Below, piece by piece: positions 23,503 through 53,059 of a DNA stretch of 64,000 bases. Source of the DNA: Acidimicrobiia bacterium (GTDB lineage: Bacteria > Actinomycetota > Acidimicrobiia > Spongiisociales > ZC4RG35); the NCBI GenBank assembly GCA_050329555.1, contig JBHJOQ010000077.1, forward strand, positions 3,144 through 67,143, read 5' to 3'. The notes beneath the pieces were generated by a model. That model ran no database searches and had not been told where the DNA came from. It was given only the letters and a program-made list of their open reading frames with translations. Numbering within the stretch: the stretch's first letter is position 1; every line of letters starts with the position of its first letter. The position numbers were made by a program, and so were the translations under genes.

Positions 23503-23898
23503 TCAGCCGGAGAAGCTACTCGATATGTCGCGCGCCTCGACCTCGGCTTCGATCGCGAGGTAGGCCTCCCGGTGGCTGGCCCCTCTGATCCGTGCCACGA
23601 GGTACTGGCGGATATAGGCCGTCAGGAACCGCCGCGGGCCCCGCTCCTGCCACTGACGGGAGTGCACCATCTCATGCATGAGGAGAGCGGTGAGTTCCCG
23701 TCCTCCCCGTTCCAGGAATGCGGGGTCGACAAAGATGAGCTTCCCGATTGTCATTGCCCCGGTTTCCTTCGCCCACAGTTTCCTCATGAGCCGTGGAGCG
23801 GACATCACCGTCACGCTTTCAGGGGTGACCGGTTGGATCCTGACCAGGTAATCGGGATTTAGCGCCGTCCCGACGAAACGAGCGGCCGGCAGCCTCAT
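23503..23898 (-). CDS. Small HExxH (DUF4157-like zincin) domain protein
   Basis: 131 aa. TGAMTIGKLIFVDPAFLERGGRELTALLMHEMVHSRQWQE matches the DUF4157 pattern. Its stop abuts the ppk2 stop with zero spacing. Confidence 0.5.
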   Translation of the reverse strand: MRLPAARFVGTALNPDYLVRIQPVTPESVTVMSAPRLMRKLWAKETGAMTIGKLIFVDPAFLERGGRELTALLMHEMVHSRQWQERGPRRFLTAYIRQYLVARIRGASHREAYLAIEAEVEARDISSSFSG

Positions 23899-26321: not shown

Positions 26322-26492
26322 AGGTTAATAAGCATTTTTTTGCTGCGAATACGTCGCTCAGCAGGGAGGATGCTGACACGGACCTATGCCCTTTGGGCAT
26401 GGACACGCGTAACGTCGCCAAACTCGGTAGCGTTGCGCGATGTGCCCCGGCGAGCCGGTGAGCACACATCCCAAACATGGAGGAAGAAAAAA

Positions 26493-28187
26493 ATGAAACG
26501 TATGCGATGGTTAGCTCTCGTTTCGGTCCTCGCCCTTCTTATCGCGGCTTGCGGTGGCGATGGCGCCGGAGACGAAACGACTACCAGCGCGGGTGAGACG
26601 ACGACGACAGCGGATGGCGGGACGACCACATCGGTCGATCCCGACGCCGACTTCGAAGGTCTCACACTCGATTCGGGTGGCTGTGACTACGGCGGCAAGA
26701 TCGAGTCCATCGCCGCGACAGCGGAGAACGAGGTCGTGTTCAGCCTTTGCTCCGAAGACCCGGCGTTCCTGGCCAAGCTCGCGTTCATCCCGTTCGGAGT
26801 GCAGCCCGCCGAGCATCTCGAAGCAACAGAAGGCTCGCCGCTCGAGACTCCTGTAGGAACCGGTCCGTTCGTGCTCCAGGATTGGAGCCGTGGCTCGGAA
26901 ATCGTGTTCGCAGCGAACCAGGACTACTGGGGCGAGGTACCGGCATTCGACACACTCGTGTTCCGTTGGAGGGACTCCAGCACGGCGAGAATCACCGAGC
27001 TGACCTCCGGTAACGCCGACATGATCACCAACCTGGCGGCGAGCGACTACGCAACTATCGAGGCCGACTCGAATTTGCAGATCCTCGTTGATGAGAACCC
27101 GAACGTCTTTTATGTCGGGTTCAACAGCAACTTCGCGCCGTTCGACGATGTGAGGGTGCGCCAGGCTGTGGCAATGGGAGTCGACAGGCAACGGATCATC
27201 GACACCTTCTATCCGGAAGGTTCGGCCGTCGCGGACTTCTTCACCCCCTGCATCATCGAGAATGCATGTGAAGGCGAACCGTTCTACGACTTCGATGTCG
27301 AAGCCGCCCAGGCGCTCCTCGCCGACGCCGGCTATGCAGATGGATTCGACACCACGATCAAGCTTCGTGACGTGTTCCGTGTCTATCTTCCCGAGCCGAC
27401 GGCCGTCGCCGAAGACATCCGGGCCCAGCTGGCCGAAAACCTCGGTATCAACGCCACGATCGAAGTCATGGAATCGGGCGCTTTCCTCGAGGAGAACGCA
27501 TCCGGGACACAGGAAGGCCTCCATCTTCTCGGATGGGGCGCCGACTACCCGCACGTGACCAACTTCCTCGACTTCCACTTCGGTGGAGGCAACCCACAGT
27601 TCGGTGACATGCACCCCGACATCGTCGAGACCCTCACTGAAGGCGCTCGCACGGTTGACCCGGAGGCGGCGAGGCCGATATATGAGCAGGCCAACAACCT
27701 GCTCCGTGAGCACGTCCCGATGGTCCCCTACGCCTGGGGAGCGGCTGCAGATGCAGCCTTGACCACACTCGAGAATGCATTTGTGGCCCCGGTTGGTGCG
27801 CCGCAGTTCTTCTCGATGAACCCCGGCGACGCCGACCTGGTGTTCGTCCAGAACGCGGAGCCGATTTCGCTGTTCTGCGCCGACGAGACCGACGGTGAGT
27901 CGCTATCGGCCTGTGAGCAGGTGCTCGAAGGCCTTTACGGCTATGGCCCCGACGGTGAGGTCATTCCCAAGCTGGCCACCGAATGTGCCGCTGACGACGC
28001 CGGCCTGGTCTGGACCTGCACACTGCGTGACGGTGTGCTGTTCCACGACGGCTCGACGTTGGATGCAAACGACGTGGTCGCTTCATGGACGGTCGGGCTG
28101 GATGCCTCCAGCCCTCTCCACGTGGGTAACAGCGGTGCTTTCGAGTACTTCGCATACCTCTGGGGAGCGTTGATAAACGCTGAGTGA
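26493..28187 (+). CDS. ABC transporter substrate-binding lipoprotein, family 5 (peptide/nickel/oligosaccharide type)
   Basis: The start MKRMRWLALVSVLALLIAACGG gives a lipobox. It is followed by a Thr-rich linker and an SBP_bac_5 body. The upstream part of the track ORF is antisense to leuS. Confidence 0.88.
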   Translation: MKRMRWLALVSVLALLIAACGGDGAGDETTTSAGETTTTADGGTTTSVDPDADFEGLTLDSGGCDYGGKIESIAATAENEVVFSLCSEDPAFLAKLAFIPFGVQPAEHLEATEGSPLETPVGTGPFVLQDWSRGSEIVFAANQDYWGEVPAFDTLVFRWRDSSTARITELTSGNADMITNLAASDYATIEADSNLQILVDENPNVFYVGFNSNFAPFDDVRVRQAVAMGVDRQRIIDTFYPEGSAVADFFTPCIIENACEGEPFYDFDVEAAQALLADAGYADGFDTTIKLRDVFRVYLPEPTAVAEDIRAQLAENLGINATIEVMESGAFLEENASGTQEGLHLLGWGADYPHVTNFLDFHFGGGNPQFGDMHPDIVETLTEGARTVDPEAARPIYEQANNLLREHVPMVPYAWGAAADAALTTLENAFVAPVGAPQFFSMNPGDADLVFVQNAEPISLFCADETDGESLSACEQVLEGLYGYGPDGEVIPKLATECAADDAGLVWTCTLRDGVLFHDGSTLDANDVVASWTVGLDASSPLHVGNSGAFEYFAYLWGALINAE

Positions 28188-28214
28188 TCGTTTGACGACT
28201 CACACAAGGACAGA

Positions 28215-28238
28215 GGGAAGGCGCCGCGGCGCCTTCCC
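28215..28238 (+). promoter_or_regulatory. Intercistronic GC hairpin between the SBP gene and the permease genes
   Basis: gggaaggcgc-cgcg-gcgccttccc (10-bp stem) followed by tcgttct. This placement is typical for partial termination or stabilisation, which gives excess SBP transcript. Confidence 0.5.
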
Positions 28239-28259
28239 TCGTTCTACGCTCACCCGAAC

Positions 28260-29336
28260 ATGATCGGATACATCCTCCGTCGCCTCCTCGTCGCTGTCCC
28301 AGTCCTCGCCGGAGTGCTGGTCGTGGTTTTTCTCCTCGTAAGGATGGTCCCCGGTGAGCCCTGCACCGCGATCCTGGGTGAGCGGGCCACCCCCGAGGCC
28401 TGCGAGCGCTTCAACGAAGCAAACGGGCTCAACGAACCGATATTCGTCCAACTCGGTATCTACGCCGGCAACGCTGTAACCGGTAACTTTGGCGAGTCGA
28501 TCAGGTTTTCCCGGCCCGTCAGCCAGATCATCGTCGAACGGCTGCCGGTCACCCTCGAGCTCACCATTGCAGCTCTGAGTGTTGCGATACTGATCGGGAT
28601 CCCACTGGGCATTGCCGCGGCCCGCCGCCACAACAGCCCTGTGGATGTCGCCGCGATGGCCTTCGCCAACATCGGGGTATCCATGCCCATCTTCTGGTTG
28701 GGCCTCCTCCTCGCCTACCTCTTTGCCGTCGTGTTATTGGGGACGCCGTTCGCGTTACCGCCCAGCGGAACCCTGAGCCCTGGTTCCCGACCGCTTGCTT
28801 TCTACGAGGTGTGGGGCTTCGAACTGTCCGAAGGATTCGGGTCGACAATGGCGGAGTTCGTGTCCAACATGACCATTACGAACACTCTTATCAGCGCCCA
28901 ATGGGAGATTTTCAGAGACGCGCTGAGACACATGATCCTTCCCGCCGTGACCCTTGCCACGATCCCGATCGCGATTATCGCCAGGATGACGCGCTCGTCG
29001 CTACTCGACGTCCTCGGGCGCGAGTACATCCGGACGGCACGGGCCAAGGGAGCGGGAGACCAGCGGGTTATTCGCCGTCATGCCCTTCGTAACGCGATGC
29101 TCCCGGTTGTGACCATCGTCGGGCTGCAACTCGGTGGGCTTCTGGGAGGAGCGGTGCTCACCGAGACGGTATTCGGGCTTGCCGGAGTCGGCACCGCACT
29201 GTTTGAGGCGATCACAGCGAGGGACTTCCCGATTATTCAGGGGTTCACCTTTGTCATCGCCACCACCTACGTTGTGGTCAATCTCATCGTCGATATCTCG
29301 TACGGATACCTCGACCCGAGAGTGAGGCTGGAGTGA
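28260..29336 (+). CDS. ABC transporter permease (DppB/OppB type)
   Basis: 358 aa. N-terminus MIGYILRRLLVAVPVLAGVLVVVF, six TM helices and an EAA-like loop (REYIRTARAKGAGDQRVIRRHALRNA). Confidence 0.9.
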   Translation: MIGYILRRLLVAVPVLAGVLVVVFLLVRMVPGEPCTAILGERATPEACERFNEANGLNEPIFVQLGIYAGNAVTGNFGESIRFSRPVSQIIVERLPVTLELTIAALSVAILIGIPLGIAAARRHNSPVDVAAMAFANIGVSMPIFWLGLLLAYLFAVVLLGTPFALPPSGTLSPGSRPLAFYEVWGFELSEGFGSTMAEFVSNMTITNTLISAQWEIFRDALRHMILPAVTLATIPIAIIARMTRSSLLDVLGREYIRTARAKGAGDQRVIRRHALRNAMLPVVTIVGLQLGGLLGGAVLTETVFGLAGVGTALFEAITARDFPIIQGFTFVIATTYVVVNLIVDISYGYLDPRVRLE

Positions 29337-30265
29337 CGCTCCCCCCCGACTTAGGGCTTCCCGAGCCCGAGTCCCTGACCGAGCGCCCAGGAGCAATGTG
29401 GCGGATCGCCTTCAGGCGATTCCTTCAACGCAAGGTTGGAGTCATCGGGCTTGCCCTGGTGACATTCATGATCCTGGTTGCTGTTTTCGCTCCCCTGATC
29501 GCTCCCTACGATTACCAGGAAAACTTCATCGGCGAGCCCGGAGCGGAGAGATGGCTCCCGCCATGCGTCAACTTTCTCGGCTGTGAGGGGACGCAACATC
29601 TGATGGGACTCGATGGGAATGTGCGTGACTTCTTCAGCCGCGTCGTCTACGCAGCCAGGGTCAGCCTCCCCCTTGGGTTCACGACAGTTCTCATCGCCAT
29701 CGTCATCGGCACCTTGATCGGAGCGGTCGCCGGATTCTTCGGAGGCTGGACTGACAACATCCTGATGCGAATCATGGACGTGGTCCTTGGCTTTCCCTCG
29801 CTCATCCTCGCAATCGCAATCGTGTTCGTCCTCGGACCGGGGATCAGGAATACCCTCCTGGCGATCGCGATCGTAACCATCCCCCAGTACGCCCGGGTGA
29901 TGCGGGCGTCGGTGCTGGCGATCAAGGAAGTCGACTACGTCTCGGCCTCACGCGCCCTGGGCTCGTCGTCATGGCGCATTCTCGCCACCCGAGTCGTTCC
30001 CAACGCGATGACCCCGCTGGTTGTCCTGGGGACCCTCGGCGTCGCCACTGTGATCCTCGAGGCAGCCGCACTCGGGTTCCTCGGACTCGGTGCCCAGCCC
30101 CCTACTCCCGAGTGGGGGGCGATGCTGGCGGCAGAACGTGCCCGAATCTTCACTGCTCCCCACCTGATGATCTTTCCCGGGCTTGCCATCATGATCACGG
30201 TGCTCGGCTTCAACCTGATGGGTGACGGGCTTCGCGATGCTCTCGATCCAACCCTGAACCGATGA
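29333..30265 (+). CDS. ABC transporter permease (DppC/OppC type)
   Basis: 310 aa. BPD_transp_1 pattern (VDYVSASRALGSSSWRILATRVVPNA). Its start overlaps the stop of the preceding gene. Confidence 0.9.
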   Translation: MTLPPDLGLPEPESLTERPGAMWRIAFRRFLQRKVGVIGLALVTFMILVAVFAPLIAPYDYQENFIGEPGAERWLPPCVNFLGCEGTQHLMGLDGNVRDFFSRVVYAARVSLPLGFTTVLIAIVIGTLIGAVAGFFGGWTDNILMRIMDVVLGFPSLILAIAIVFVLGPGIRNTLLAIAIVTIPQYARVMRASVLAIKEVDYVSASRALGSSSWRILATRVVPNAMTPLVVLGTLGVATVILEAAALGFLGLGAQPPTPEWGAMLAAERARIFTAPHLMIFPGLAIMITVLGFNLMGDGLRDALDPTLNR

Positions 30266-31332
30266 ACGCAGCCCGTCCACTCCCCGAGGAACCGATCGAC
30301 ACTGATGCTCCTGTGCCGGCAGCAGCGGGTGAGCGCCTTCTCGATGTCAAAGGCCTGAGGACCCATTTCGACACCAGAGACGGGCTGGTCAAGGCAGTGG
30401 ATGGGGCCGACTTCCACGTCAACCGGGGAGAGGTGCTGGGGTTGGTCGGAGAATCCGGCTGTGGCAAGTCGGTGGCGTCGTTGTCGATCATGAGCCTCGT
30501 GCCCCACCCGGGCAAGGTTGTCGCCGGGGAGATCCTGTTCGGCGGTCGCGACATCACCAAGATGAAGGGCAAGGAGCTCAGGGACCTGCGCGGAGAGCAC
30601 ATCTCGATGATCTTCCAGCAGCCCAGCTCGGCTCTGAACCCGGTCTACCGGACCGGGGTCCAGATTCAGGAAGTGTTCGAACTGCACCGGGACTGGAGCA
30701 ACGAGGTCGAAGAACGCAAGGTCATCGAAATGCTCGAGAAGGTGGGGATACCCGATCCGAAGAGACGGGCCGAGGCGTACCCCCACGAGCTGTCCGGGGG
30801 CATGGCCCAACGAATCATGATTGCGATGGCTCTCGCCTGCGAACCCGAGCTGTTGATTGCGGATGAGCCGACCACCGCACTGGACGTCACGATTCAAGCC
30901 CAGATCCTCGACTTGATCCGTGACCTTCAGCAGACTTCGAATACGGCTGTCGTCCTGATTACCCACGATCTGGGCATCGTCGCCGAGATGGCGGATCGCG
31001 TGGCGGTGATGTACGCGGGCGAGATCGTAGAGGAAGCGGACGTCCGCACGATCTTCAAGAACCCGCTCCATCCCTATACCAAGGGCCTGATCGGGTCGAT
31101 CCCGGTCCTCGGGTCGCGCCGGGAGCGGTTGGACGTCATCCATGGGGTGGTCCCCTCGATGGTCAACCTGCCTGTGGGGTGCCGCTTCGCCTCACGCTGT
31201 GGTCCAAGGATCGAACATGGTCTTCAGATCTGTACCGAAGTCGATCCCGACCTGCGCGAGATGGAGGATGCCCACAAAGTCCGGTGCTGGCTCTATTACG
31301 GCCCCGAGAAGGTCTTGGCTAGCGATGCCTGA
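30262..31332 (+). CDS. ABC transporter ATP-binding protein (DppD/OppD type)
   Basis: Walker A GESGCGKS, signature LSGGMAQR, Walker [13 protein letters not shown], and a C-terminal oligopeptide-type extension with CRF..RC. Confidence 0.92.
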
Positions 31333-32326
31333 AACCCTCGTGAGTCTCAGAGATCTGGTGAAGGAGTTCCCCGTCCGCGGGGGTGTTCTGCAGCGCCAGG
31401 TCGCAACGGTGCAGGCGGTGGCAGGGGTGAATCTCGACATAATCAGAGGAGAGACGATGGGTCTCGTCGGGGAGTCAGGGTGCGGGAAGACCACCCTGGG
31501 ACGGCTCCTCACCCGACTGCTCGAGCCCACCAGCGGGACAATCGGGTTCGACGGGACCGACATCACTCACCTTTCGGGAAGACAGTTGAAGCCGTTCCGG
31601 CGGCGTGTCCAGATCATCTTCCAAGATCCCTACGGATCCCTCGACCCGCGGTCACAGGTTGGCCCGATTATCTCCGAGGGCCTGCGCCTTCACAGCATCG
31701 GCGACAAAGACGAACGCCATGAGCGGGTCAACGAGATGCTGGAGCTGGTCGGCCTTCGGCCCGCACACGCATCCCGCTATCCCCACGAGTTCTCTGGCGG
31801 CCAACGCCAGCGCATCGGCATCGCCCGGGCGCTCATTCTCAAACCCGACCTGGTGGTCGCCGACGAGCCCGTCTCCGCCCTGGACGTCTCGGTCCAGGCA
31901 CAGGTGCTCAACCTGCTCAAAGAGTTGCAGTCCGAGCTCGACCTCACCCTCCTCTTCATCGCCCACAACCTCGCCGTTGTCGAGCACATATCTGACAGGG
32001 TCGCGGTGATGTACCTCGGCCGGATTGTCGAGATAACCGACCGCGACAGCCTCTACGCCAATCCGCTCCATCCCTACACCGAGGCGCTGCTTTCGGCAAT
32101 CCCCATCGCCGACCCCGACCGTGCCCGGACCAGGCAGATCCTCCAGGGCGAGATCCCCTCACCGCTGAACCCTCCACCGGGCTGTCACTTCCATCCACGC
32201 TGCCCCATCGCCAGGCCGGGGCTGTGTGACGTCGAGGCTCCAGGTTTGATGCCAGGACCGGGGGAAAAGGATCATCTCGCCGCCTGCTGGCTACGGGCCG
32301 GTGATCGCGCCATCGCCGGCGTCTGA
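31325..32326 (+). CDS. ABC transporter ATP-binding protein (DppF/OppF type)
   Basis: The ATG at 31325 overlaps the stop of the previous gene. Walker [10 protein letters not shown], signature FSGGQRQR and Walker [13 protein letters not shown]. Confidence 0.92.
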
Positions 32327-32509: not shown

Positions 32510-33355
32510 ATGGAACGGATCGGAGTGATCGGCGGCGGGCTCATGGGCTCGGGTATCGCCGAAGTGTGTGCCAGGGCGGGGAGCGACGTCGTCGTCCATG
32601 AGATCAACGCCGAGGCTGCAGAGGCGGCCCTGGGGCGCATCGAGAAATCGCTGGCTCGAGCCATTGAGCGGGAGAAGCTGGACGAGGCCGGGAGGGATGA
32701 CCTCTTGTCCCGTATCGATATCTCCACCGACATCTCCGATCAGGCCGACCGCCAGCTGGTCATCGAGGCGGCGACCGAGAACGAGAGCTTGAAGAAGGAT
32801 ATCTTTGCCGAGCTGGACAGGGTCACCGGCCCGGATGCGATTCTCGCATCGAACACATCCTCGATCCCGATCACAAGGCTGGCGGCAGCCACCGACAGGC
32901 CCGGGAAGGTAGTTGGCCTTCACTTCTTCAACCCGGTACCGGTGATGGCCCTGGTCGAGCTGGTGACCACCGTGCTCACCGACGACGACGCCGCCGAGGC
33001 CGTTGCCTCCTACGCCGAATCGCTGGGCAAGACCGTGATCAGGGCGAAAGATCGCGCCGGGTTCATCGTGAACATGCTGCTGATCCCCTACATGATCGGT
33101 GCCGTGCGCATGTTTGAGGCAGGGTTCGCCTCCGCCGAGGACATCGACGCCGGGATGAAGCTGGGAGCCAACCACCCGATGGGGCCTTTAGAGCTCGCCG
33201 ACTTCGTCGGCCTGGACACCACCAAATACGTCGCCGATGTGTTGTTCGAAGAGTTCAAGGACCCAGCATACGCCTCTCCCCCTCTGCTCACCCGGATGGT
33301 CGAGGCAGGCCTCCACGGCCGCAAGTCAGGCCGCGGCTTCTACGACTACAGGTGA
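32510..33355 (+). CDS. hbd: 3-hydroxybutyryl-CoA / 3-hydroxyacyl-CoA dehydrogenase (NAD-binding)
   Basis: 281 aa. IGVIGGGLMGSGIAEV Rossmann motif, ASNTSS and GFIVNMLL motifs, and a C-terminal 3HCDH domain. Confidence 0.9.
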   Translation: MERIGVIGGGLMGSGIAEVCARAGSDVVVHEINAEAAEAALGRIEKSLARAIEREKLDEAGRDDLLSRIDISTDISDQADRQLVIEAATENESLKKDIFAELDRVTGPDAILASNTSSIPITRLAAATDRPGKVVGLHFFNPVPVMALVELVTTVLTDDDAAEAVASYAESLGKTVIRAKDRAGFIVNMLLIPYMIGAVRMFEAGFASAEDIDAGMKLGANHPMGPLELADFVGLDTTKYVADVLFEEFKDPAYASPPLLTRMVEAGLHGRKSGRGFYDYR

Positions 33356-33873
33356 ACTAGAACCTGGTCGAGTTCGGCGTGGTCGCCGGCGAATTCCTCG
33401 AAATCCGAGTAGCGGAGCTCGTCGCCGGGTCCGATCACCAAGGTGGCTCCAAGCTGGAAAGGGCGTCTGCCCGCGTTGTGCTGCCGGTTCCCTTTGGCAA
33501 GTGCTCTCGTCCCGACCAAAAGTTGCCGGGGGCTGACCAGCGAAAGTTTGCCGAGAGTGCCGGTGCCTACCAACTCCGCCGCTGATCCGTCTTCGTCGAG
33601 GAGCACCTCAAAGGGAACCGACTCATCCTCGATGAACGCTTGTGCATAGCGGCGCCCGCCGGTACCTATCGCGGTGACGTCGGCCCCGGCTGCCAGAATC
33701 TCCTGATATCTGTCACGGACCTGACCGGCCCGTTCGCGGCAGGTCAGTCAGCCGAAGTGACGGAGGAAAAGGATGACCCTGGGATCTGTCGCCCAACGGT
33801 CGCCAAGCCGATGCTCGGTACCGTCGGGGTCGACCAGATGCATTTCACCGAGGGCAGAGACGTCAAATACCAT
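33346..33873 (-). CDS. Prx-like2 / AhpC-TSA_2 family thiol-disulfide oxidoreductase with an in-frame TGA at the first redox Cys position (candidate selenoprotein, otherwise a pseudogene)
   Basis: My own translation is MVFDVSALGEMHLVDPDGTEHRLGDRWATDPRVILFLRHFG-[TGA, 33748-33750]-LTCRERAGQVRDRYQEILAAGADVTAIGTGG...LVIGPGDELRYSDFEEFAGDH. The frame is continuous on both sides of the TGA. The track lists only the part after an internal GTG (33346..33606). Confidence 0.6.
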
Positions 33874-33891: not shown

Positions 33892-34656
33892 TCACGACGC
33901 CAACGTCCCGGCGAATACCTGCCATGCCAGCGCCGACTTGGCGACCAGGCTGAGCAGGATGTATGTGGACTCACCGTAGACATACTCGGCCCATTTCCCG
34001 ACCCGGCGATACTGCAGGACCATCACCACCGCAAAGACGTTGAAGAAGACGAACAGGGAGAAGAAGATCCCGTAGACGAAACCCGGAGGGCTGACGTCGA
34101 AACCAGGGCTGATGAGGTAGATCGCAATCGCCACCCAGGGGACCGCTCCGGCGATGACACCGAACCAGTAGGGCAGCCAGCCGGCAACGCGCCCCGGGGA
34201 CTCGTACTTCTCCTGGAGGAGTCCGAACAAGATCATCGAGGCGTTGACGCCTGCCAAGGCGATCAGAGCGGCAATGTCGGCGATACCCACCAACATTGCG
34301 ATCAGAACCACCATCACCGAAGACGACAGCGAATACTCGATCCATCGGGCGTAGTTGCGCTTCTCCCCGAGATTGGCCAGATACCACCGGTATATCCCGG
34401 GCGATGCAATCAGGAAGTGAGCCCCCGCCGAGAGGAAGAGAAACACAGCGACACCCCAGGCGAGACTCAAATCGAAAAGCGGCTCGACCGCGGTCGGCTC
34501 CAGACCGGGGGGCCCGGTCATATAGGTCGCGATCACAGGAAGGGTGAAATCGGTTGCGAGCCACAGGACTGCGGCTCCCTGTGCTGCATGGAGAAACCCC
34601 ATGACGATGTTGTACAGGCGGAGGCGGGAGGAAACGGACGCGGCTAAATCGCTCAT
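33892..34656 (-). CDS. Heliorhodopsin (7-TM retinal protein with inverted topology)
   Basis: 254 aa. It has the signature blocks of characterised heliorhodopsins: ...GFLHAAQGAAVL..., SAGAHFL, ARWIEYSLSSSVMVVLIAMLVGIADIAALIALAGVNASMILFGLLQEKY, VPWVAIAIYLISPG, and YILLSLVAKSALAWQVFAGTL, which carries the Schiff-base Lys in VAKSALAWQ. The counterion Glu lies in WIEYS. Confidence 0.9.
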   Translation of the reverse strand: MSDLAASVSSRLRLYNIVMGFLHAAQGAAVLWLATDFTLPVIATYMTGPPGLEPTAVEPLFDLSLAWGVAVFLFLSAGAHFLIASPGIYRWYLANLGEKRNYARWIEYSLSSSVMVVLIAMLVGIADIAALIALAGVNASMILFGLLQEKYESPGRVAGWLPYWFGVIAGAVPWVAIAIYLISPGFDVSPPGFVYGIFFSLFVFFNVFAVVMVLQYRRVGKWAEYVYGESTYILLSLVAKSALAWQVFAGTLAS

Positions 34657-34724: not shown

Positions 34725-36089
34725 TCATCTGGAGAGGAATTCCTGGTACCAGCGCCCGCTGTCTTTGATCGTGCGCTCCATCGTGTCGTAGTCGACCCGC
34801 ACAATCCCGAAACGCTTCGAGTATCCAAGTGCCCATTCGAAGTTGTCGAGCAGGGACCACACGAAGTAACCGACCATGTCGACGCCGTGATCGATGGCAT
34901 CGGAAACAGCCTGGATGTGGGTCTCGATGTACTCGGTGCGCTTGACATCGTGAATCGAGCCGTCCGCCTCCACTATGTCGGGGAAGGCGGCACCGTTCTC
35001 GGTGACCATCATCGGGACCGGCCCGTATTCGTCATGGACCCGGCGGAGGGTGAGAGTCAACCCTTCCGGCTCGACCCCCCAACCCATTTCGGTCAATTCT
35101 CCGGGCGGCCTCACGATCACGGCCTCGTCCGCCCCCGGCCAGGCAGGCATCCCGGGGAAGCCTTCACGGTGCTCGACGTGGTTGATGTTGTAATAGTTGA
35201 CCCCGAGGACGTCGATCCGCTGAGACGCTGCGTGCAGTTCGGCAGTGTCGATTCGGTTGGTAACGCCATACTTGTCGTGATATCCAAGGATCTTCTCGGG
35301 ATAACTGCCACGAAAAACGGCGTCGAGGAAGAGCTGATTGTGCACCGCATCGACCGAGTCAGCCGCCTCCCGATCCTCGGCAGAACCGGAGGCGGGGAGC
35401 GCGGGAATCACGTTGAGGACGATTCCAAGCGATGTATCACTCGAGCCACCCATCGATCTCAACTCCCCAACCGCAACATGATGCGCCAACATCAGGTGAT
35501 GTGCGGCGACGAACGATGAGCCGCCATCCCTCATCCCTGGCGCATGTTCACCAGCGCTGTGCCCGAGGAAGGCGGTGCACCACGGCTCGTTGAACGTGGC
35601 GATTTGCGGGATCATGTCCCCGAGGGACTGATAGACCGCCCCCGCATACTCAGCGAACCAATCGACTGACTCCCGGTTGAGCCAACCGCCCCGGTCTTGC
35701 AGCGCTTGGGGAAGGTCCCAGTGGTACAGGGTCGCCACGGGGGTTATTCCGGCCGAGTGAAGCTCGTTGCACAAGCGGCGGTAGAAGTCGACGCCCGCCT
35801 GGTTCACCGCGCCCGTGCCCTCGGGGAGGATTCGGGCCCACGCGATGGAGAATCGGTAGGCGTTGACTCCGAGAGTGGAGAGGATGCCTACGTCCTCGGC
35901 ATACCGGTGGTAGTGGTCTACGGCAACGTCACCGTTCTCCCCGTGCAGGGTCTTGCCCTCGGTGTGGGAAAAGGTGTCCCAGATGGACACTCCCCTCCCG
36001 CCCTCGTCGATCGCTCCTTCGATCTGATACGACGCTGTCGCCGCCCCCCACAAGAAGCCTTCCGGAAAGCTGGAAGCTCTGACACTCAC
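34725..36089 (-). CDS. GH1 beta-glucosidase
   Basis: FPEGFLWGAATASYQIEGA, the acid/base TFNEPW and the nucleophile VTENGAAF. The start is probably the GTG at 36089 (VSVRASSFPEG), preceded by gaggag. The ORF is open up to the TTG at 36146. Confidence 0.9.
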   Translation of the reverse strand: MSVRASSFPEGFLWGAATASYQIEGAIDEGGRGVSIWDTFSHTEGKTLHGENGDVAVDHYHRYAEDVGILSTLGVNAYRFSIAWARILPEGTGAVNQAGVDFYRRLCNELHSAGITPVATLYHWDLPQALQDRGGWLNRESVDWFAEYAGAVYQSLGDMIPQIATFNEPWCTAFLGHSAGEHAPGMRDGGSSFVAAHHLMLAHHVAVGELRSMGGSSDTSLGIVLNVIPALPASGSAEDREAADSVDAVHNQLFLDAVFRGSYPEKILGYHDKYGVTNRIDTAELHAASQRIDVLGVNYYNINHVEHREGFPGMPAWPGADEAVIVRPPGELTEMGWGVEPEGLTLTLRRVHDEYGPVPMMVTENGAAFPDIVEADGSIHDVKRTEYIETHIQAVSDAIDHGVDMVGYFVWSLLDNFEWALGYSKRFGIVRVDYDTMERTIKDSGRWYQEFLSR

Positions 36090-36385
36090 TGTTCGAAGAT
36101 CTCCTCGTTTGGCCGTTGACCCACTTTTGCACACCGAAGAGATCAATGCCCTTGAGGACGATTCTCTGTGTGAACAAGAACACGATCACCTGGATGATCG
36201 GCGCCAGTATCGAACCGGACTGGATGAGGTTCGGTTGGCTGTCGTGGAGAGAATTGAAGGTCCACAGATGACACCTGGAGCGGCCCATGGTTCGACCCGA
36301 GAGGTGTCGAGTGCGCAGAGGTAGGTGCGATCCCGCTCCCCCAATTTCACCAGCGCCATCGCCATCGCCCTGCAGGGCTGAAAAC

Positions 36386-37309
36386 CTACCCGGCGAAGGC
36401 CACCGTTTCTCTCCCCCCGACCGGAGGGGTGAAACGGAACACGGAGCCGGACAGGGGTTGGGCGTCCAATTGTTCCCGGGTGAGGCCGGTCCGGGCCGTG
36501 GTCACGTATAGGTCGTTATATCCGGGACCGCCAAAACAACAACTCGTGACATTGGGTGCGGGCAGCTCCAACTCATCGACGACAAGCCCTTCAGGGTCAT
36601 AGCGGCGGACAACGCCACCACCGAAGACTGCCACCCAGAGATGGTCTTCGACATCGATGCACATTCCGTCCGGTGCCCCGAATCCGGATTCGACCCGTGC
36701 CAGGACGCTTCGCTCTTCGAACCTCCCCGTTGCGACGTCATAGGAGAAACGGTCGATGCTCCCACTGGCGGAATCGATGTAGTACATCCAGCTTCCGTCC
36801 GACGACCAGGCGAGGCCGTTGGATATCCCAACATCGCCAAGCACCCGCTCGACTGCCAGGTCAGGGCCGACCAGGTACAGGGCCGAATGAATTCCTGAGT
36901 CGGTCATGGATCCGGCTAGTAACCGGCCCGCAGGGTCGCATCCGGCTTCATTCATCCGCCCGTCGTCATCAACCCCTGCGAACCGGGCAAGCGCGACACG
37001 CAAGTGGCCGGCATCGTCAACTGCGAACAGCTCATTCTTCCCGGTCAAGACCAGGCCACCTCGGGACCTCGGGATGACCGAGGTGACCGGACTCCCGACG
37101 TCGAGGCTCGCAACGGAAAGCGCCTCGAGATTCAGGCGGTGCACGAATCCCCTGATTATGTCGACCATGAGCAGGGACCCGGTTGTTGCTTCCCAGACCG
37201 GCCCTTCTCCCAGCTCGGCACCTGCCTCCCAGATCAGCTCGCCACCGGAGTCGAGCAGCTCCGGGGCCGGGATGGCGGCTGTCGCCCACCCATCGAGGCT
37301 GATCTCCAT
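36386..37309 (-). CDS. SMP-30/gluconolactonase/LRE-like beta-propeller (sugar lactonase family)
   Basis: 307 aa. GEGPVWEA..., SNGLAWSSDGSWMYYIDS, PDGMCIDVEDHLWVAVFGGG and LYVTTAR...GSVFRF are typical of this family. Confidence 0.82.
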   Translation of the reverse strand: MEISLDGWATAAIPAPELLDSGGELIWEAGAELGEGPVWEATTGSLLMVDIIRGFVHRLNLEALSVASLDVGSPVTSVIPRSRGGLVLTGKNELFAVDDAGHLRVALARFAGVDDDGRMNEAGCDPAGRLLAGSMTDSGIHSALYLVGPDLAVERVLGDVGISNGLAWSSDGSWMYYIDSASGSIDRFSYDVATGRFEERSVLARVESGFGAPDGMCIDVEDHLWVAVFGGGVVRRYDPEGLVVDELELPAPNVTSCCFGGPGYNDLYVTTARTGLTREQLDAQPLSGSVFRFTPPVGGRETVAFAG

Positions 37310-37312: not shown

Positions 37313-38338
37313 TTAGCCCGCCTCACTCGACGCTGCCCACAGGTTGATATCGCCGTCAACGGCGTAGCGGTCGATCTCCTCGAGCTCTGCGGCGGAAAAC
37401 TCGACGTAGTCCATGGCGCCGAGCGCCTCTTCGATCTGCTCCCACGAGCTGGCGCCCATCAGGGCCGAAGTCACCCTGGGATCCCGCAGAGCCCAGGCGA
37501 TTGCCATCTGCGCCAACGTCTGGCCCCTGTTTCGGGCAATCTCATTGAGCTGACGCACTCTGGCCACGTTCTCGTCGTTCAGGAGGCTGGTGTCGAAAGA
37601 GTCTGCGTTAACGGCCCGGGACGATTCGGGGACGCCGTCGAGGTACTTGTCGGTGAGCAGCCCCTGGGCGAGTGGCGAGAACACGATGCAGCCGATGCCC
37701 TCGGCCTCCAGGACATCGAGCAGACCGCCCTCGATCCAGCGGTTGAGCATCGAATACGAGGGCTGATGAATGAGACACGGGGTGCCGAGCTCGCGAAGGA
37801 TGGAAGCTGCTTCGGCAGTCTTCTTCGCGCTGTAGGAGGAGATACCCACGTAGAGCGCCTTCCCGAGACGAACTGCGTGGTCGAGTGCCCCCATCGTTTC
37901 TTCGAGGGGGGTCAGCGGGTCGTAGCGATGGGAATAGAAGATGTCGACATAATCGACGCCGAGCCGTCGCAAGCTCTGGTCGAGGCTCGCAGTCAGGTAC
38001 TTCCTCGAGCCGAACTCGCCGTAGGGACCGTCGTACATCCAGTACCCGGCCTTGGTGGAGATGATCAGCTCATCGCGGTATGGGGCGAGATCGGTTGCGA
38101 GCAATGACCCGAAGTTTCGCTCGGCCGAGCCGGCAGGCGGGCCGTAGTTGTTGGCCAGGTCGAAGTGGGTGATTCCGTTGTCGAACGAGTTGAGAATCAT
38201 CGACCGTCCCGCTTCGGTGAGCGCATCACCCCCGAAGTTGTGCCAGAGACCGAGGGAGATGCGGGGCAAGTCGAGCCCGCTGCGCCCACAACGCTCATAC
38301 GGGACCTTCGAATAGCGATCATCGCCAGGTTGGTACAT
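37313..38338 (-). CDS. Aldo/keto reductase (YghZ/Tas-like)
   Basis: 341 aa. MYQPGDDRYSKVPYERCGRSGLDLPRISLGLWHNFG, DLANNYG, and the AKR catalytic pattern D/Y/K/H. Confidence 0.88.
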   Translation of the reverse strand: MYQPGDDRYSKVPYERCGRSGLDLPRISLGLWHNFGGDALTEAGRSMILNSFDNGITHFDLANNYGPPAGSAERNFGSLLATDLAPYRDELIISTKAGYWMYDGPYGEFGSRKYLTASLDQSLRRLGVDYVDIFYSHRYDPLTPLEETMGALDHAVRLGKALYVGISSYSAKKTAEAASILRELGTPCLIHQPSYSMLNRWIEGGLLDVLEAEGIGCIVFSPLAQGLLTDKYLDGVPESSRAVNADSFDTSLLNDENVARVRQLNEIARNRGQTLAQMAIAWALRDPRVTSALMGASSWEQIEEALGAMDYVEFSAAELEEIDRYAVDGDINLWAASSEAG

Positions 38339-38805: not shown

Positions 38806-39816
38806 GTGAGTTTCAAAGTTGCGTTGGTTGGTGGTATTCCTGACGGTGAAGTTCCTGCTTGGGTCAATGAGCGCCTGGAACAGGCAGGGATTGACTTCGT
38901 TGCTAGGAACTGTGTTTCGCGGCAACAACTAGCAGAGATCGCTGGCGATGCCGATGTCGTCTGGACGTTGGGCAGTCACGAGTGTCTGTACGCCGAGAAT
39001 CTGGATGTATTGACGCGCTGCGCGGTGATCCTGAGGACGGGCAGCGGAACCGACAACGTTCCCGTTCAAGAGGCGACTGACCTCGGCATCATTGTCGCGA
39101 ACACACCGGAGGCCGTCAGCGACGCTGTATCCGACCATGCGATCGGCCTGCTGTTCACGATCATCCGACAGATCGTTGTCCAGGATCAGGCGATGCGACG
39201 CGGCCTCTGGGATCGGTATTTGGGGTGGCCGAACTGGCATCTCCATGATCAGACGTTCGGCCTGGTTGGCTTTGGGAACATCGCTCAGCTAGTTGCGCGC
39301 AAGTTATCCGGGTTCTCGCTCAAGATGATCGCCTATGACCCATACGTACCGGCAGAATTCATGGCCGAGCGAGGCGTGCGCGCCGTCAGCCTTGAGGAAC
39401 TATTTGCCACCTCCGACTTTGTCTCTCTGCATTGTCCGCTCATCGACTCAACCCGTCATCTCATCAACGAACGCACGCTGCGAATGATGAAGCCCCAGGC
39501 GGTGCTGATCAATACGGGTCGCGGGCCGCTGATCGACGAAGCCGCCCTCCTGAGCGCCCTCCAGGAAGGATGGATTGCGGCTGCAGGCCTCGACGTTTTC
39601 GAGCAGGAGCCTACCCCTCAGGATAACCCGCTGCTAAAGCTCGATAACGTAGTGATCACACCCCACATCGCCGGATACAGTGACGAGTTCTGGGACAATT
39701 CTTGGTTGTTCTCGGTCGAAACCGTGATCGATATCGCCAATGGACGCATGCCCCGATCGTACGTGAATCGCGATGTGAAGCCACGCCGGGAGCTGGATGG
39801 CAGGGGAGATGGCTGA
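38806..39816 (+). CDS. D-isomer-specific 2-hydroxyacid dehydrogenase (CtBP/PGDH-like)
   Basis: 336 aa. GTG start preceded by ggaggag. NAD motif GLVGFGNIAQLVARKL, NTGRGPLIDEAAL and ITPHIAGYS (catalytic His). Confidence 0.85.
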   Translation: MSFKVALVGGIPDGEVPAWVNERLEQAGIDFVARNCVSRQQLAEIAGDADVVWTLGSHECLYAENLDVLTRCAVILRTGSGTDNVPVQEATDLGIIVANTPEAVSDAVSDHAIGLLFTIIRQIVVQDQAMRRGLWDRYLGWPNWHLHDQTFGLVGFGNIAQLVARKLSGFSLKMIAYDPYVPAEFMAERGVRAVSLEELFATSDFVSLHCPLIDSTRHLINERTLRMMKPQAVLINTGRGPLIDEAALLSALQEGWIAAAGLDVFEQEPTPQDNPLLKLDNVVITPHIAGYSDEFWDNSWLFSVETVIDIANGRMPRSYVNRDVKPRRELDGRGDG

Positions 39817-42022
39817 GCTGATCGGCTACACAGACAAATTGAGTGTCGCACCCGGGGATCAGATCGCCTTCAAGGTGAGTACCGATCACGCCGGTTTTGA
39901 CGCGAACATCGTGCGCTTGGTCCATGCGGACGTCAACGGGCCGGGCGTGCGGATGGAACAGGTCTCGACAACTGCGCGCCATCCGGGACAGCTTCAGGAG
40001 ACTGCGGCGGGTTCGTATGCCCGGATTGACGATCCCGTGCTGGCTGATCTGCGAAGCCTCACGATCCAGTTGTGGGTCTATTCCACAACGCCGGCAAAAG
40101 GGGAGCCACAGGGTCTGATCACGCGCTGGACAGGTGACAGCGGCTGGGCCTTGGTGATAGGCGAAACGGGCGAGCTTGGCTTCTGGATGGGCGCGGAGGG
40201 CGCTGTGGAACGCTGTTACACAAGCAGCCAACTACGATCGCATCAGTGGTACTTCGTCGCACTGACACTTGACGCCGAAGTTGGGCTGCTCACGCTGTAT
40301 CAGCGTCCTCTGACACCGAATGCTCTGGAAACCGCGTTGGCACCCAGCAGGCATACCGTCAACAGCGAACCGTTTGCGCCAGAAGGCATTCCTCTACTTA
40401 TGGCCGCTACCCATGCAGAAGTCTTCGGTGCATCTCGCCTGAGGACTTTCGGACACTTCAACGGAAAGCTTGACAATCCTCGGGTGTTCAAGGTTGCGTT
40501 GACGGCTGAGGAGGTTGAGTCCCTGTTTCGGGACACGCCGCCGCAAGCAGTCGCTCCGCAGGCTCTGGTTGCATCGTGGGACTTTTCTCACGAGATAACA
40601 GGCTCAACCCTCGTTGATGTTGGGCCGCATGTGGCGCACGGTATGGTGGTTAATATGCCGATGCGCGCGGTGACCGGCCACGCATGGGATTCGACTGAGT
40701 TCGACTACAAACGTGCGCCGTCGCACTACACCGCCATCCATTTTCACGACGATGACCTGGAGGATGCAGGCTGGGATACCAGTTTCAGGTGGCTGGTGCC
40801 GCAGGGAACCCGGAGCGGCTTCTATGCAGCGCATGTGCGTGATGCCGACGTGGAGGACTACATCCCGTTTTTTGTTCGTCCGAAGCGGGGTTCGGCAGCT
40901 GCGCGGGCCGTCGTCCTGGTATCGACGATGACATATCTCGCCTATGCCAATGATCGGATGAAGTCATTTCCAATCCATCAGGCAGGGATTACCAATCGCC
41001 CGATTGTCACAGACCCGCTCGACGAGCTGCTGGAAGCACACCCCGAATTCGCCATGTCAATCTATGACGTGCATTCCGATGGCAGCGGTTGCTGTTATTC
41101 GTCTCGGCTGCGTCCTATCCCCAATATGCGGCCCCATTACCGGATGTGGCTCGTCGGTGCTCCCCGTCACCTCGGCGCGGATCTGTACCTGATCGACTGG
41201 CTGGAAGCCAAGGGTATTGCCTACGACGTCATCACCGATGAGGATCTCCACGCTGAGGGCACTTCGCTCTTGAAGGGTTATTCCGTGGTGTTGACGGGCA
41301 CTCACCCGGAATACTGGACGTCGCCAATGCTCAAGTCCCTCGAAACCTATCTGAACACGGGTGGCCGCATGATGTACCTCGGCGGCAACGGTTTCTACTG
41401 GGTGACTGCCGTCGACCCCGAACGCCCGCATGTCATCGAAGTCCGTCGCGGAACGTCAAGCACCCGTGCCTGGAATTCCGAACCAGGCGAGCAGTATCAC
41501 AGCGCAACCGGTGAAATGGGTGGTTTGTGGCGACATCGGGGATTCGCTCCGAATCGAGTTGCAGGCGTTGGTTTCACCGGTATGGGCTGGGATTCGCCGA
41601 CGCCGGGTTACCGCCGCCAGCCGGGAAGCTTCGATCCGCGTGCTGAGTTCATCTTCGAAGGCATTGGCAGCGATGAGACTATCGGCGATTTTGGCCTCGT
41701 GTTGGGCGGTGCAGCGGGCGATGAAATCGACAGGCTTGATTACGCGCTTGGAAGTCCACCGCACACCCTGCTGCTGGCGTCGGCCACGGATTACAGCCGT
41801 CACTACCTGCCGGTCATCGAAGACGTCCTCGAAATCTCTGCCAGCCTGATAGCCGAGCAGGACCCGAATGTGCGGGCAGATATGGTCTACTTCGAGATGC
41901 CGGACGGCGGTGCAGTTTTTTCGACAGGCTCGATTACATGGTGTGGCAGCCTGTCGCACAACCAGTACGAGAACAACGTGTCGCGAATCACAGAGAATGT
42001 GCTGAGAAGGTTCGTGTCATAG
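39797..42022 (+). CDS. LamG/concanavalin-like domain fused to an N,N-dimethylformamidase large-subunit-like (DMFA2_C-type) domain; function unknown
   Basis: 741 aa. The N-terminal beta-sandwich and LamG-like part is LTIQLWVY...WALVIGETGELGFWMG...WYFVALTLD...GKLDNPRVF. The C-terminal part has a GATase1/ThuA-like stretch, YSVVLTGTHPEYWTSPMLKSLETYLNTGGRMMYLGGNGFYW. I assigned the family from memory of DMFase beta-subunit homologues. The ATG at 39809 (ATGGCTGA overlap with the upstream stop) is an alternative start. Confidence 0.55.
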   Translation: MAGEMAELIGYTDKLSVAPGDQIAFKVSTDHAGFDANIVRLVHADVNGPGVRMEQVSTTARHPGQLQETAAGSYARIDDPVLADLRSLTIQLWVYSTTPAKGEPQGLITRWTGDSGWALVIGETGELGFWMGAEGAVERCYTSSQLRSHQWYFVALTLDAEVGLLTLYQRPLTPNALETALAPSRHTVNSEPFAPEGIPLLMAATHAEVFGASRLRTFGHFNGKLDNPRVFKVALTAEEVESLFRDTPPQAVAPQALVASWDFSHEITGSTLVDVGPHVAHGMVVNMPMRAVTGHAWDSTEFDYKRAPSHYTAIHFHDDDLEDAGWDTSFRWLVPQGTRSGFYAAHVRDADVEDYIPFFVRPKRGSAAARAVVLVSTMTYLAYANDRMKSFPIHQAGITNRPIVTDPLDELLEAHPEFAMSIYDVHSDGSGCCYSSRLRPIPNMRPHYRMWLVGAPRHLGADLYLIDWLEAKGIAYDVITDEDLHAEGTSLLKGYSVVLTGTHPEYWTSPMLKSLETYLNTGGRMMYLGGNGFYWVTAVDPERPHVIEVRRGTSSTRAWNSEPGEQYHSATGEMGGLWRHRGFAPNRVAGVGFTGMGWDSPTPGYRRQPGSFDPRAEFIFEGIGSDETIGDFGLVLGGAAGDEIDRLDYALGSPPHTLLLASATDYSRHYLPVIEDVLEISASLIAEQDPNVRADMVYFEMPDGGAVFSTGSITWCGSLSHNQYENNVSRITENVLRRFVS

Positions 42023-42166: not shown

Positions 42167-42372
42167 GTCGCCTCCTGCGGACACTATCGCAGCGGAGTGC
42201 CAAACGGGTGGCGACCCACGAAGAAAGGGGCGGCGGGCAGGCCACCCCTTTCATCAACCGTGACGGATGGTGACGTAGGAGCTATTTGTTCTTGCCGGGG
42301 GCGGAACCGGAGTTGCCGGGAGAGTCAGGCTTGCCCTTCCCCTCAGGCTTGCCGGCCCAGGGAGGCTTGCCT
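42089..42372. repeat. Right copy (DR-B) of the ~285-bp diverged direct repeat
   Basis: It pairs with 38261-38545. It contains the dead AKR 5' fragment, the intergenic segment and the functional 3' end of the 42282..42920 gene. Confidence 0.8.
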
Positions 42373-42920
42373 TTACCCTCGTCTTCGAGCTCGGCGTCTC
42401 CGCCGTCGCCGTCCTGGCACAGGGTCTCGATCGTGGTGAAGTCGATCGTGTACTCACTGCCGGCTTCCCCCAGGTCCGAATCGGCCTCTTCGTCGCCACC
42501 CTTGACCTGTTGGTCACCCTTGCCCAAGTCTGACTGGGCGAGATGACGGACGACACAGCCGCGGCCGGTGCCTTCATAGAGGCTATTGAACAGTTTCATG
42601 AACATCCCGTGGTTGACCTGGCCATTGGATCCGGCAACCTCTCCCCCGGTCAGCTCGCAGACGGGTTCATCATCTTGCTCGGTAGGCTCGGCATCTTCAG
42701 CGGTCGGGAGTGCACAGGGCTCGTCAATCGACGAAATGTTCCAGAGGAACAAACCATTGATCAGGTCGTACCCGAAGCTGAAAAGTGTGTCCACCATCAA
42801 CTCGCTGTCGACTCCTTCTTCCGGGACGTCGGCATCGGTCTCGGCCACGGCGATGCCGGAGCCGACGAACAAACCCATTGCGACAAAGGTGACGATGGCG
42901 GATCTTTTCAGGTTCTTCAT
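42282..42920 (-). CDS. Secreted acidic hypothetical protein with a Lys/Pro/Gly-rich C-terminal tail
   Basis: 212 aa. Signal peptide MKNLKRSAIVTFVAMGLFVGSGIAVAE, an acidic body with 4 Cys, and the tail GKGKPPWAGKPEGKGKPDSPGNSGSAPGKNK. I do not recognise a family. Confidence 0.55.
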   Translation of the reverse strand: MKNLKRSAIVTFVAMGLFVGSGIAVAETDADVPEEGVDSELMVDTLFSFGYDLINGLFLWNISSIDEPCALPTAEDAEPTEQDDEPVCELTGGEVAGSNGQVNHGMFMKLFNSLYEGTGRGCVVRHLAQSDLGKGDQQVKGGDEEADSDLGEAGSEYTIDFTTIETLCQDGDGGDAELEDEGKGKPPWAGKPEGKGKPDSPGNSGSAPGKNK

Positions 42921-45755: not shown

Positions 45756-46674
45756 TCAGGCGGCTTGTGAGGCGGGTCTGCCCCATCGTCGGCCTTTCTC
45801 GGCTCGGACTCGGGCACGTTCTCGACGTTGAGCAGCGAGCAGTTGGGGATCTCGTGCGTTGGCGTTGCGCCACCGTAGATAGGCGTGGAGTCGGCGGGTC
45901 AGTACAACATGGTTGGGATGGTTCGAGTTGTTCAACACGAACTCGCGTAACGGCCCGAAGTGGGCTTCGATCGGATTGGCCCATGAACTGTAGGTCGGGG
46001 TGAAACACAGTTCGACCTTGTTCTGCCACGCCCAGGCCCGGATTGTTTTGCCCTTATGCGCCGACAAGTTGTCCAAGATCACATAGATCCGTTTCCCGTC
46101 GGGACGAGCGGTTCGGATCGACTTCAGAGCTTGAAGCGTGTTTTCTGCCGACTTGCGTTTCCGGACCACACCCCACAGTTCGTCGTCGCCGACCGAGTAA
46201 CACCCGTGGAACTGACGGACCCCATGCAGCTTGTTGTAGTTGGCCGGCTGACGTTGCGGCCCGCCTCGGGGCGCCCACGCCGAACCACCCACCGGACGGA
46301 TGCTCAACGGGGCCGAACTCATCGAAAGCGAAACACCGGTCGGGATGCTGGTCTAAAACCTCCTCGATACGATCCAACTTGGCGCCACGGTCCGGATCGT
46401 TCGACTCCTTCCAGGTTTTGGTCCGCTGGAAAGTGACCCCGTGGTCGTTGCGGATCTGTCGGAGACGCTCCCTTCCCAGCTTCACCATCCGGGTGTCGTT
46501 ATCAGCGAGAAACTTGACCAGTTTGCGCAGACTCCAACGGGTGAACGGCTGGCCCAACGCCTCGGGTCGGAATTTGGCCGTCTCAACAATGAAAGCTTCA
46601 TCGTCAGTCGTGATCGAGGTTGACGGAATGTCGATAGTCGCGGCCGAGGACCTTGGGCTCACGCCAAATCCCAT
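45756..46674 (-). mobile_element. IS630-family transposase remnant: 5'-truncated and frameshifted
   Basis: Two overlapping ORFs. The first, 46054..46674, reads ...TRWSLRKLVKFL...FDEFGP. The second, 45756..46322, reads LSIRPVGG...YVILDNLSAHKG...YSSWANPIEAHF, which carries the DDE motifs. The frames differ by 1 nt at a ggcccc run near 46310. The N-terminal HTH region is missing, and the sequence switches abruptly to AT-rich DNA at about 46680. Confidence 0.8.
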
Positions 46675-50990: not shown

Positions 50991-51125
50991 GATCTCTCGC
51001 TATTTGGTTCCAGTGTCACTTGCCGGCACAGATTGCCTGCTGGACCTGCCAACACACCGTATCTGTGGTGTTATCTCGGGCGTTGCGACCATCTAGACCC
51101 ACGTCCACCTATCGTTAGACCAGGA

Positions 51126-53057: not shown

Positions 53058-53059
53058 AG

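Follow-up and report, generated by a model that had tools for sequence, protein, structure and literature searches.

A 64,000-nucleotide stretch of contig JBHJOQ010000077.1, from an Acidimicrobiia bacterium (called "the window" below), contains an open reading frame (ORF) that, judging from its sequence, encodes a bona fide heliorhodopsin (HeR), and the supposedly empty DNA following this ORF encodes a selenoprotein missed by gene finders. The selenoprotein is the new point of the locus: the DNA from 33873 to 33346 almost certainly specifies a UxxC selenoprotein of the Prx-like2 fold. Taking the two genes together, we favour, with a probability of about 55%, a reading in which the HeR would be a light sensor modulating a partner protein and co-transcribed with the selenocysteine (Sec)-containing redoxin, with a response to oxidative stress as the output. 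The HeR gene and the codons for its predicted retinal-binding lysine and counterion lie at the following positions.

33892..34656, minus strand: HeR coding sequence, 254 amino acids, ATG start, TGA stop (ORF; Pfam, NCBIfam and PDB matches; purifying selection).
33937..33939, minus strand: AAG codon for Lys240, the retinal Schiff-base lysine, equivalent to Lys241 of the 48C12 HeR (48C12 alignment, residue check).
34336..34338, minus strand: codon for Glu107, the Schiff-base counterion (ungapped 48C12 alignment of residues 11-112, residue check).

The product matched Pfam family PF18761 over its full length (profile positions 1-242 of 242, E=2.9e-99, 331.7 bits for a cutoff of 26.7) and the NCBIfam equivalog for heliorhodopsin HeR, NF038020 (326.7 bits for a cutoff of 100). 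Matches to solved structures were obtained for heliorhodopsins only (48C12, 6SU3/6UH3; TaHeR, 6IS6; and 9VFC, a 317-amino-acid HeR), and there was no match to the type-1 microbial rhodopsin family PF01036 (Bac_rhodopsin) at E≤0.01. The first-pass annotation had called this gene a heliorhodopsin, and the best matches in Pfam, NCBIfam, PDB and the protein search, all of them heliorhodopsins, bear this out. Every conserved block listed in that annotation is present in the 254-amino-acid product, which contains RWIEYSLSSSVMVVLIA at residues 104-120, IADIAALIALAGVNASMILFGLLQEKY at residues 125-151, VPWVAIAIYLISPG at residues 172-185 and LSLVAKSALAWQVFAGTL at residues 235-252. The two conserved histidines it had named are also present, His23 in FLHAAQ, within the block at residues 22-26, and His80 in AHF (residues 79-81), and the retinal lysine and counterion glutamate that it had predicted are in place, as Lys240 and Glu107, after alignment to 48C12.

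The 48C12 HeR, from an actinobacterial fosmid (PDB 6SU3/6SU4, 6UH3), is 55% identical to the window HeR over 244 aligned positions (E ~1e-78). The two proteins are of the same length class, have the same inferred inverted topology and share the helix C motif RW(I/V)EYSLSS and the helix G motif SLVAKSALAWQ, with the Schiff-base lysine. His23, His80 and Glu107 are common to both, and are positionally identical, because residues 11-112 align without gaps. The window HeR differs from 48C12 in its D-E loop, which is one residue longer, its E-F loop, which is two residues shorter, and its host, a member of the Acidimicrobiia from microbial mats. TaHeR from Thermoplasmatales (PDB 6IS6, 7CLJ) belongs to the same family, with a full-length match (E ~1e-58), but is archaeal and more distant. 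Lys240, Glu107, His23 and His80 were invariant across 14 relatives with 70-94% identity (alignment A1). In four species of the clade, the HeR gene displayed 95, 48 and 443 differences at codon positions 1, 2 and 3, respectively, with 421 synonymous and 114 non-synonymous codon differences, a pattern implying that the gene is under purifying selection and is not decaying. The remaining ORFs in other frames over the HeR DNA are the usual shadow ORFs of a sequence with a GC content of 61%.

An AlphaFold model based on a 14-sequence alignment was of low confidence (pLDDT, the predicted local distance difference test score, of 59); this low-confidence model contained seven helices and an A-B β-hairpin (strands 38-45 and 56-64). 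With the helix limits taken from the model, the loops on the N-terminal side contain 10 lysine and arginine residues, versus none on the opposite side. According to the positive-inside rule, the N-terminus is therefore predicted to be cytoplasmic, as proposed in the first-pass annotation, giving the inverted topology of heliorhodopsins. A naive segmentation by hydropathy yielded six transmembrane segments, with helices C and D merged; this count was discarded and the helices were recounted with the model limits.

An identical HeR protein was found on contigs from several stromatolite metagenome runs. The closest relatives (94, 93 and 91% identity) all came from metagenome-assembled genomes (MAGs) of Acidimicrobiia (Actinomycetota), and the relative with 94% identity has already been named "heliorhodopsin HeR [Acidimicrobiia bacterium]" by NCBI. 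HeRs have been reported to be restricted to monoderm hosts (PMC8612252), and the affiliation of these nearest relatives is consistent with this restriction. These MAGs and a GC content of 58-66% across the window also agree with the high-GC actinobacterial setting initially proposed for the locus. At least 7,992 database proteins matched the HeR at E≤1e-20. The HeR is thus a routine member of a large, automatically annotated family and, by itself, adds little.

The 536-bp "gap" after the HeR gene was overlooked in the first-pass annotation, and contains the following features.

33346..33873, minus strand: unannotated Prx-like2 (AhpC/TSA_2) redoxin gene, 175 codons, with one in-frame UGA (U42-L-T-C45), starting 18 bp after the HeR stop codon.
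33748..33750, minus strand: the in-frame UGA, probably read as selenocysteine (conservation, Cys homologues, selenocysteine insertion sequence, SECIS).
33715..33733, minus strand: candidate bacterial SECIS hairpin, with a 7-bp stem (ACGGGCC/GGUCCGU) and a GGUCA apical loop, which a spacer of 21 nt separates from the UGA.

This DNA translates as MVFDV...ILFLRHFG-TGA-LTCRERAGQVR...LVHL. With a cysteine in place of the stop, the translation matched the Pfam families AhpC-TSA_2, AhpC-TSA and Redoxin. The best NCBIfam match was the SelL-related redox protein NF040769 (83.3 bits, profile positions 5-171 of 173), below the cutoff of 120; at the sequence level, the redoxin is therefore related to the SelL subfamily, and is not a member of it by the NCBI threshold. 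The best PDB match was PRXL2B (9US9), the FGCVVCR segment of which, with its CxxC motif, aligned with FG-U-LTCR.

Several lines of evidence support the reading of the in-frame TGA as a selenocysteine codon rather than as a true stop generating a pseudogene or two short ORFs, an alternative that we consider extremely unlikely. The TGA was identical in five independent assemblies and was conserved in six species-level genomes with 71-100% protein identity and no indel over 172 codons. It was also present at this position in 77 of the 80 redoxin loci recovered by a metagenome scan, a proportion that is not an unbiased estimate, because the scan pattern (TCRERAGQ) favours this redoxin subfamily. 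Codons 43-89, which would be non-coding were the TGA a stop, displayed differences dominated by the third codon position (46/26/306), no indels and a non-synonymous rate of 0.094. Full-length homologues with 46-69% identity have a cysteine at the UGA site, within FLRHFGCxxCRE (P0121, P0175, P0192, P0196, P0204 and P0235). Gene callers, by contrast, annotate only fragments, as would be expected of a true stop: dozens of closer homologues are recorded as proteins of 133-136 amino acids beginning with M/L-TCRERAG, from the codon that follows the TGA, or as shorter fragments (about 110 amino acids), and the window redoxin appears in public gene calls only as an 86-amino-acid C-terminal fragment. 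UGA is the most common stop codon of the window genes (32 of 45, including that of HeR), so a genome-wide reassignment of UGA is excluded.

The hairpin downstream from the UGA provides further support for recoding. The GCCGGUCAGGU segment was invariant, including its synonymous sites, in 72 distinct redoxin sequences. Across these 72 sequences, the hairpin had a stem of 6-7 bp, (A/G)CGGGCC/GGUCCG(U/C), and a GGUCA loop, with 96.2% of cells paired. One pair was GC in 65 sequences, AU in four, GU in two and CG in one, with none broken; another was GC in 36, AU in 10 and GU in seven, and was unpaired in 19. The covariation score was exceeded by none of 500 shuffles, a control that leaves the effect of shared ancestry in. 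Bacterial SECIS (bSECIS) elements have been defined as hairpins 16-37 nt after the UGA, with a loop of 3-9 nt carrying a G in one of its first two positions and a stem of 4-16 bp (PMC13188914), and the hairpin with the GGUCA loop conforms to this definition. The minimum-free-energy hairpin immediately after the UGA (registers A and B) had a z-score of -1.09 and no compensatory changes, and was therefore discarded, hairpin C further downstream being preferred. No second exact match to the SECIS core was found in the window.

Two null results would be compatible with a true stop. An Rfam scan of 33300-34800 yielded no matches, as expected given the poor coverage of bacterial SECIS elements, and neither the window nor 1.5 Mb of collected loci yielded a tRNA-Sec; no sel gene was seen in the 64-kb window or those loci either. 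Against this, selA, selB, selC and selD have been reported for another Acidimicrobiia order, Actinomarinales, in each of its 84 complete genomes (2026 preprint), and the conserved frame, Cys homologues and covarying hairpin all argue for selenocysteine. UxxC Prx-like selenoproteins have been known since the Sargasso Sea and Global Ocean Sampling (GOS) selenoproteome surveys (PMC1088965, PMC2398784). The window protein resembles the SelL/PRXL2 proteins of this type (also NF040769 and PDB 9US9) in its thioredoxin-fold AhpC/TSA_2 domain, in the position of the Sec as the first residue of UxxC, in the existence of Cys homologues and in having a SECIS immediately after the UGA. It differs from them in scoring under the NF040769 cutoff and in belonging to an Acidimicrobiia-centred clade.

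The HeR would be a seven-helix retinal protein, with retinal bound to Lys240 as a protonated Schiff base, Glu107 as the counterion and His23 and His80 as the proton-accepting group. Judging from homologous prokaryotic HeRs that have been characterised, the protein is most likely not an ion pump; it is probably a light sensor with a slow photocycle, the cytoplasmic loops of which may bind and modulate a partner protein (PMC9529153, PMC11109279). The spacing of the two genes suggests that HeR and the redoxin are almost certainly co-transcribed. The output would most likely be a response to oxidative stress linked to light, perhaps in combination with sugar metabolism. More speculatively, the Sec-redoxin would be the best candidate among the local genes for a partner that is co-expressed or regulated, possibly with the neighbouring GH1 β-glucosidase. 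The idea of the Sec-redoxin as a partner is based on the enrichment in redox genes near HeRs (PMC8612252), on a disulfide oxidoreductase present in a related locus (L020, see below) and on a conserved 18-bp spacer. The genes surrounding the HeR-redoxin pair are as follows.

37313..38338, minus strand: aldo-keto reductase, L-glyceraldehyde-3-phosphate reductase type (Pfam; NCBIfam NF007388, 466.9 bits for a cutoff of 448).
36386..37309, minus strand: SMP-30/gluconolactonase-like protein (SGL; Pfam).
34725..36146, minus strand: GH1 β-glucosidase (Pfam Glyco_hydro_1, E=5e-160; NCBIfam TIGR03356 BGL, 579 bits for a cutoff of 478.5).
32510..33355, plus strand: 3-hydroxybutyryl-CoA dehydrogenase (hbd), convergent (Pfam; NCBIfam NF005875, 441 bits).
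25935..32326, plus strand: Opp/Dpp-type ABC importer, beyond hbd, consisting of SBP_bac_5, two permeases and two ATPases (Pfam).

On the HeR strand, the aldo-keto reductase, the SMP-30/gluconolactonase-like protein and the GH1 β-glucosidase precede HeR, which is separated from GH1 by 68 bp and from the redoxin by 18 bp. The start codon of the GH1 gene is uncertain (454 amino acids in public calls). The 3' end of hbd overlaps that of the redoxin gene by 10 bp, closing the predicted HeR transcription unit. Promoter and terminator scans of the GH1-HeR and HeR-redoxin junctions gave no informative signal. The longest ORF for SBP_bac_5 (750 amino acids, 25935..28187, plus strand) overlaps leuS (23895..26321, minus strand) by about 390 bp; its start in public gene calls gives a protein of 564 amino acids, making it likely that the long N-terminal extension is spurious.

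The conservation of this context was assessed by tblastn of the window-neighbour proteins on 80 HeR loci from species-representative genomes. In three of these loci (L006, L007 and L008), HeR is followed, after 21 bp, by the redoxin ORF, and in two others (L020 and L027) a 1.5-kb insert separates the two genes. GH1 lies upstream from HeR in L006, L007 and L020, but not in L008 and L027. Four species have retained the 18-bp HeR-to-redoxin spacer, including its sequence, implying co-transcription of the two genes. In L020, the insert encodes a 474-amino-acid pyridine-nucleotide-disulfide oxidoreductase with a CxxxxC motif (L020:8857-10281, plus strand), lying between HeR and the Sec-redoxin, an enzyme that may serve as the redoxin's own reductase. 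GH1, the gluconolactonase-like protein, the aldo-keto reductase, hbd, the Opp importer and LeuS were rejected as family-wide HeR partners, their conservation being confined to the closest clade.

Several observations weigh against the reading of the HeR as a sensor coupled to this redoxin. Of 81 non-redundant HeR genome loci, six displayed the adjacency of HeR and the redoxin, all of them in the closest clade; this adjacency is therefore weak evidence for coupling. In the reciprocal test, starting from the redoxin, HeR was adjacent in only one of 80 loci (L093, on the same contig as L020), a count that understates what could be seen because many of the redoxin-locus contigs are short, with little upstream sequence. 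The redoxin-hbd-Opp block is present, with no HeR detected upstream, in L087, L088, L090 and L091, relatives with redoxins 83-86% identical retain this block without HeR, and in L089 (684-1623) GH1 directly abuts the redoxin; the adjacency may therefore be plain synteny. The same-strand neighbours in the window (GH1, SGL, aldo-keto reductase and AhpC/TSA_2) belong to none of the ten groups of HeR operon partners described to date (glutamine synthetase (GS), NAD+ synthetase, photolyase, MerR, TerC, ABC transporter, SDR, α/β-hydrolase, DUF2177 and DUF2238; PMC11109279). None of the RNA-seq runs contained the HeR locus, a light-harvesting role with a carotenoid antenna has been proposed for HeRs (2025 preprint), and a Pfam scan of about 60 window ORFs revealed no carotenoid or retinal family (phytoene synthase, CrtI, lycopene cyclase, Blh), small ORFs not being exhaustively covered.

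The last of these results agrees with the first-pass annotation, in which no blh or crt gene was seen in the window, and could indicate that the HeR is an apo-opsin or a relic devoid of photochemical function, in an organism unable to make retinal. We consider this very unlikely, given the strong purifying selection on the gene and the invariance of Lys240, Glu107, His23 and His80. In addition, the scan covered only 64 kb of the genome, and the DNA comes from a carotenoid-rich phototrophic mat (stromatolite metagenomes). Retinal would have to be supplied by genes elsewhere in the genome or by the mat community.

The other observations can be accommodated by a HeR that is genuine but has incidental neighbours, acting by itself or through partners whose genes lie elsewhere (for example, a two-component system or, for light harvesting, an exogenous-carotenoid antenna), its gene being a lineage-specific insertion between GH1 and the redoxin. 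This explanation is a distinct possibility. None of the window's neighbour genes occurs in about 70 of the 76 other HeR loci, the most common neighbour in relatives belongs to a published partner group (see below), and HeR seems to have been acquired or lost at a variable position preceding a stable redoxin-hbd-Opp block. On the other hand, the 18-bp spacing and the conservation of the spacer in four species imply co-transcription, HeR stays close to the redoxin in L020, where a disulfide reductase is added, and HeR neighbourhoods in general display a statistical enrichment in redox genes. The HeR-redoxin adjacency is thus a lead, not evidence of coupling. The neighbourhood that the first-pass annotation had expected to be informative is conserved only within a narrow clade. 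The more specific proposal that the light-activated HeR binds or activates the co-transcribed Sec Prx-like2 redoxin, possibly with a disulfide reductase as in L020, thereby pre-empting photo-oxidative damage, we regard as unlikely in this precise form.

When all the ORFs lying no more than 3.5 kb from HeR in the loci of relatives were clustered without bias, with classes confirmed by Pfam, SDR proteins emerged as the most common neighbours (21 loci, same strand, downstream), matching one of the ten published groups (PMC11109279). Other recurrent neighbours were an acyltransferase (12 loci), an ABC-F ATPase (10), SRPBCC (10), an ECF sigma factor (9), NmrA/DUF2867 (9), a B12-binding protein (7), an amine oxidase (7) and DUF1365 (6). 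The loci concerned lie in L011-L085 (for example, L022:9133-10158, L067:6838-7923, L028:10434-12116 and L061:4524-5699). The B12-binding-domain protein is encoded about 80 bp upstream from HeR, on the same strand, in seven loci, and might provide a second component for light sensing, resembling CarH.

The window locus resembles published partner systems, AbHeR-glutamine synthetase, HeR-photolyase and OcHeR-OmrDE ABC exporter (PMC9529153, PMC11109279), in that HeR lies on the same strand as, and within a few tens of base pairs of, an enzyme gene; in these systems, light-dependent binding through the cytoplasmic loops of HeR has been proposed (PMC9529153, PMC11109279). It differs from them in the identity of the neighbours, GH1 and a Sec Prx-like2 redoxin, and in its Opp-type ABC importer, which lies on the opposite strand and persists without HeR. 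Bulzu et al. (2021) reported an enrichment in thioredoxin, peroxidase and catalase in HeR regions, with peroxiredoxin transcriptionally linked, and links of HeR to peroxiredoxin, glyoxalase and glucose/sorbosone dehydrogenase (PMC8612252). The window is similar to these neighbourhoods in having a thiol/selenol redoxin directly downstream from HeR and aldo-keto reductase and gluconolactonase-like enzymes upstream, but its redoxin is a selenoprotein, a kind unmentioned in that study (PMC8612252).

A block of housekeeping genes fills the left third of the window, with dnaG, a class-II tRNA synthetase (glyS-like), uppS, recO, era, CNNM/CBS and ybeY, together with 7TMR-HD, phoH, HTH, rsmE-like, dnaJ, hrcA, radical-SAM, lepA, holA, folP-like, comEC, PPK2 and leuS genes. 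The right third contains the GlgE α-glucan pathway and miscellaneous enzymes. Five further features were identified.

50832..60383: complete GlgE-type α-glucan cluster, consisting of glgB-like (50832-53057), glgE (53060-55039), treS-maltokinase fusion (54960-58307) and glgX-like (58278-60383, minus strand) genes.
60722..62302, minus strand: adenylate/guanylate cyclase catalytic-domain protein (221 amino acids), directly downstream from a DUF5939 protein (303 amino acids).
39797..42022, plus strand: 741-amino-acid protein with a Laminin_G_3 lectin-like domain and a C-terminal N,N-dimethylformamidase β-subunit-like domain.
45756..46322, minus strand: DDE_3 transposase-like ORF, 188 amino acids, in a stretch of lower GC content (0.58-0.59 around 44-48 kb).
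42282..42920, minus strand: 212-amino-acid ORF with a coding-type GC content at third codon positions (GC3), conserved in stromatolite contigs, with no Pfam or NCBIfam match.

The cyclase and the DUF5939 protein may form a signalling pair, and the DDE_3 ORF may mark the remnant of a mobile element between enzyme genes. The 741-amino-acid Laminin_G_3 ORF overlaps the end of a 2-hydroxyacid dehydrogenase gene.

The redoxin exposes a systematic annotation error, in which a widespread Acidimicrobiia UxxC selenoprotein is recorded as "peroxiredoxin-like family protein" fragments of 110-136 amino acids or as intergenic space, and its SECIS, with the GGUCA loop, is now defined well enough for the building of a search model. 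For the question of what prokaryotic HeRs regulate, the locus provides a testable candidate pair, consisting of a HeR and a Sec-redoxin encoded 18 bp downstream, which fits the photo-oxidative-stress hypothesis. If the HeR did bind or activate this redoxin under the control of light, a new class of HeR partners would be defined and a rhodopsin would be linked to a selenoprotein for the first time.

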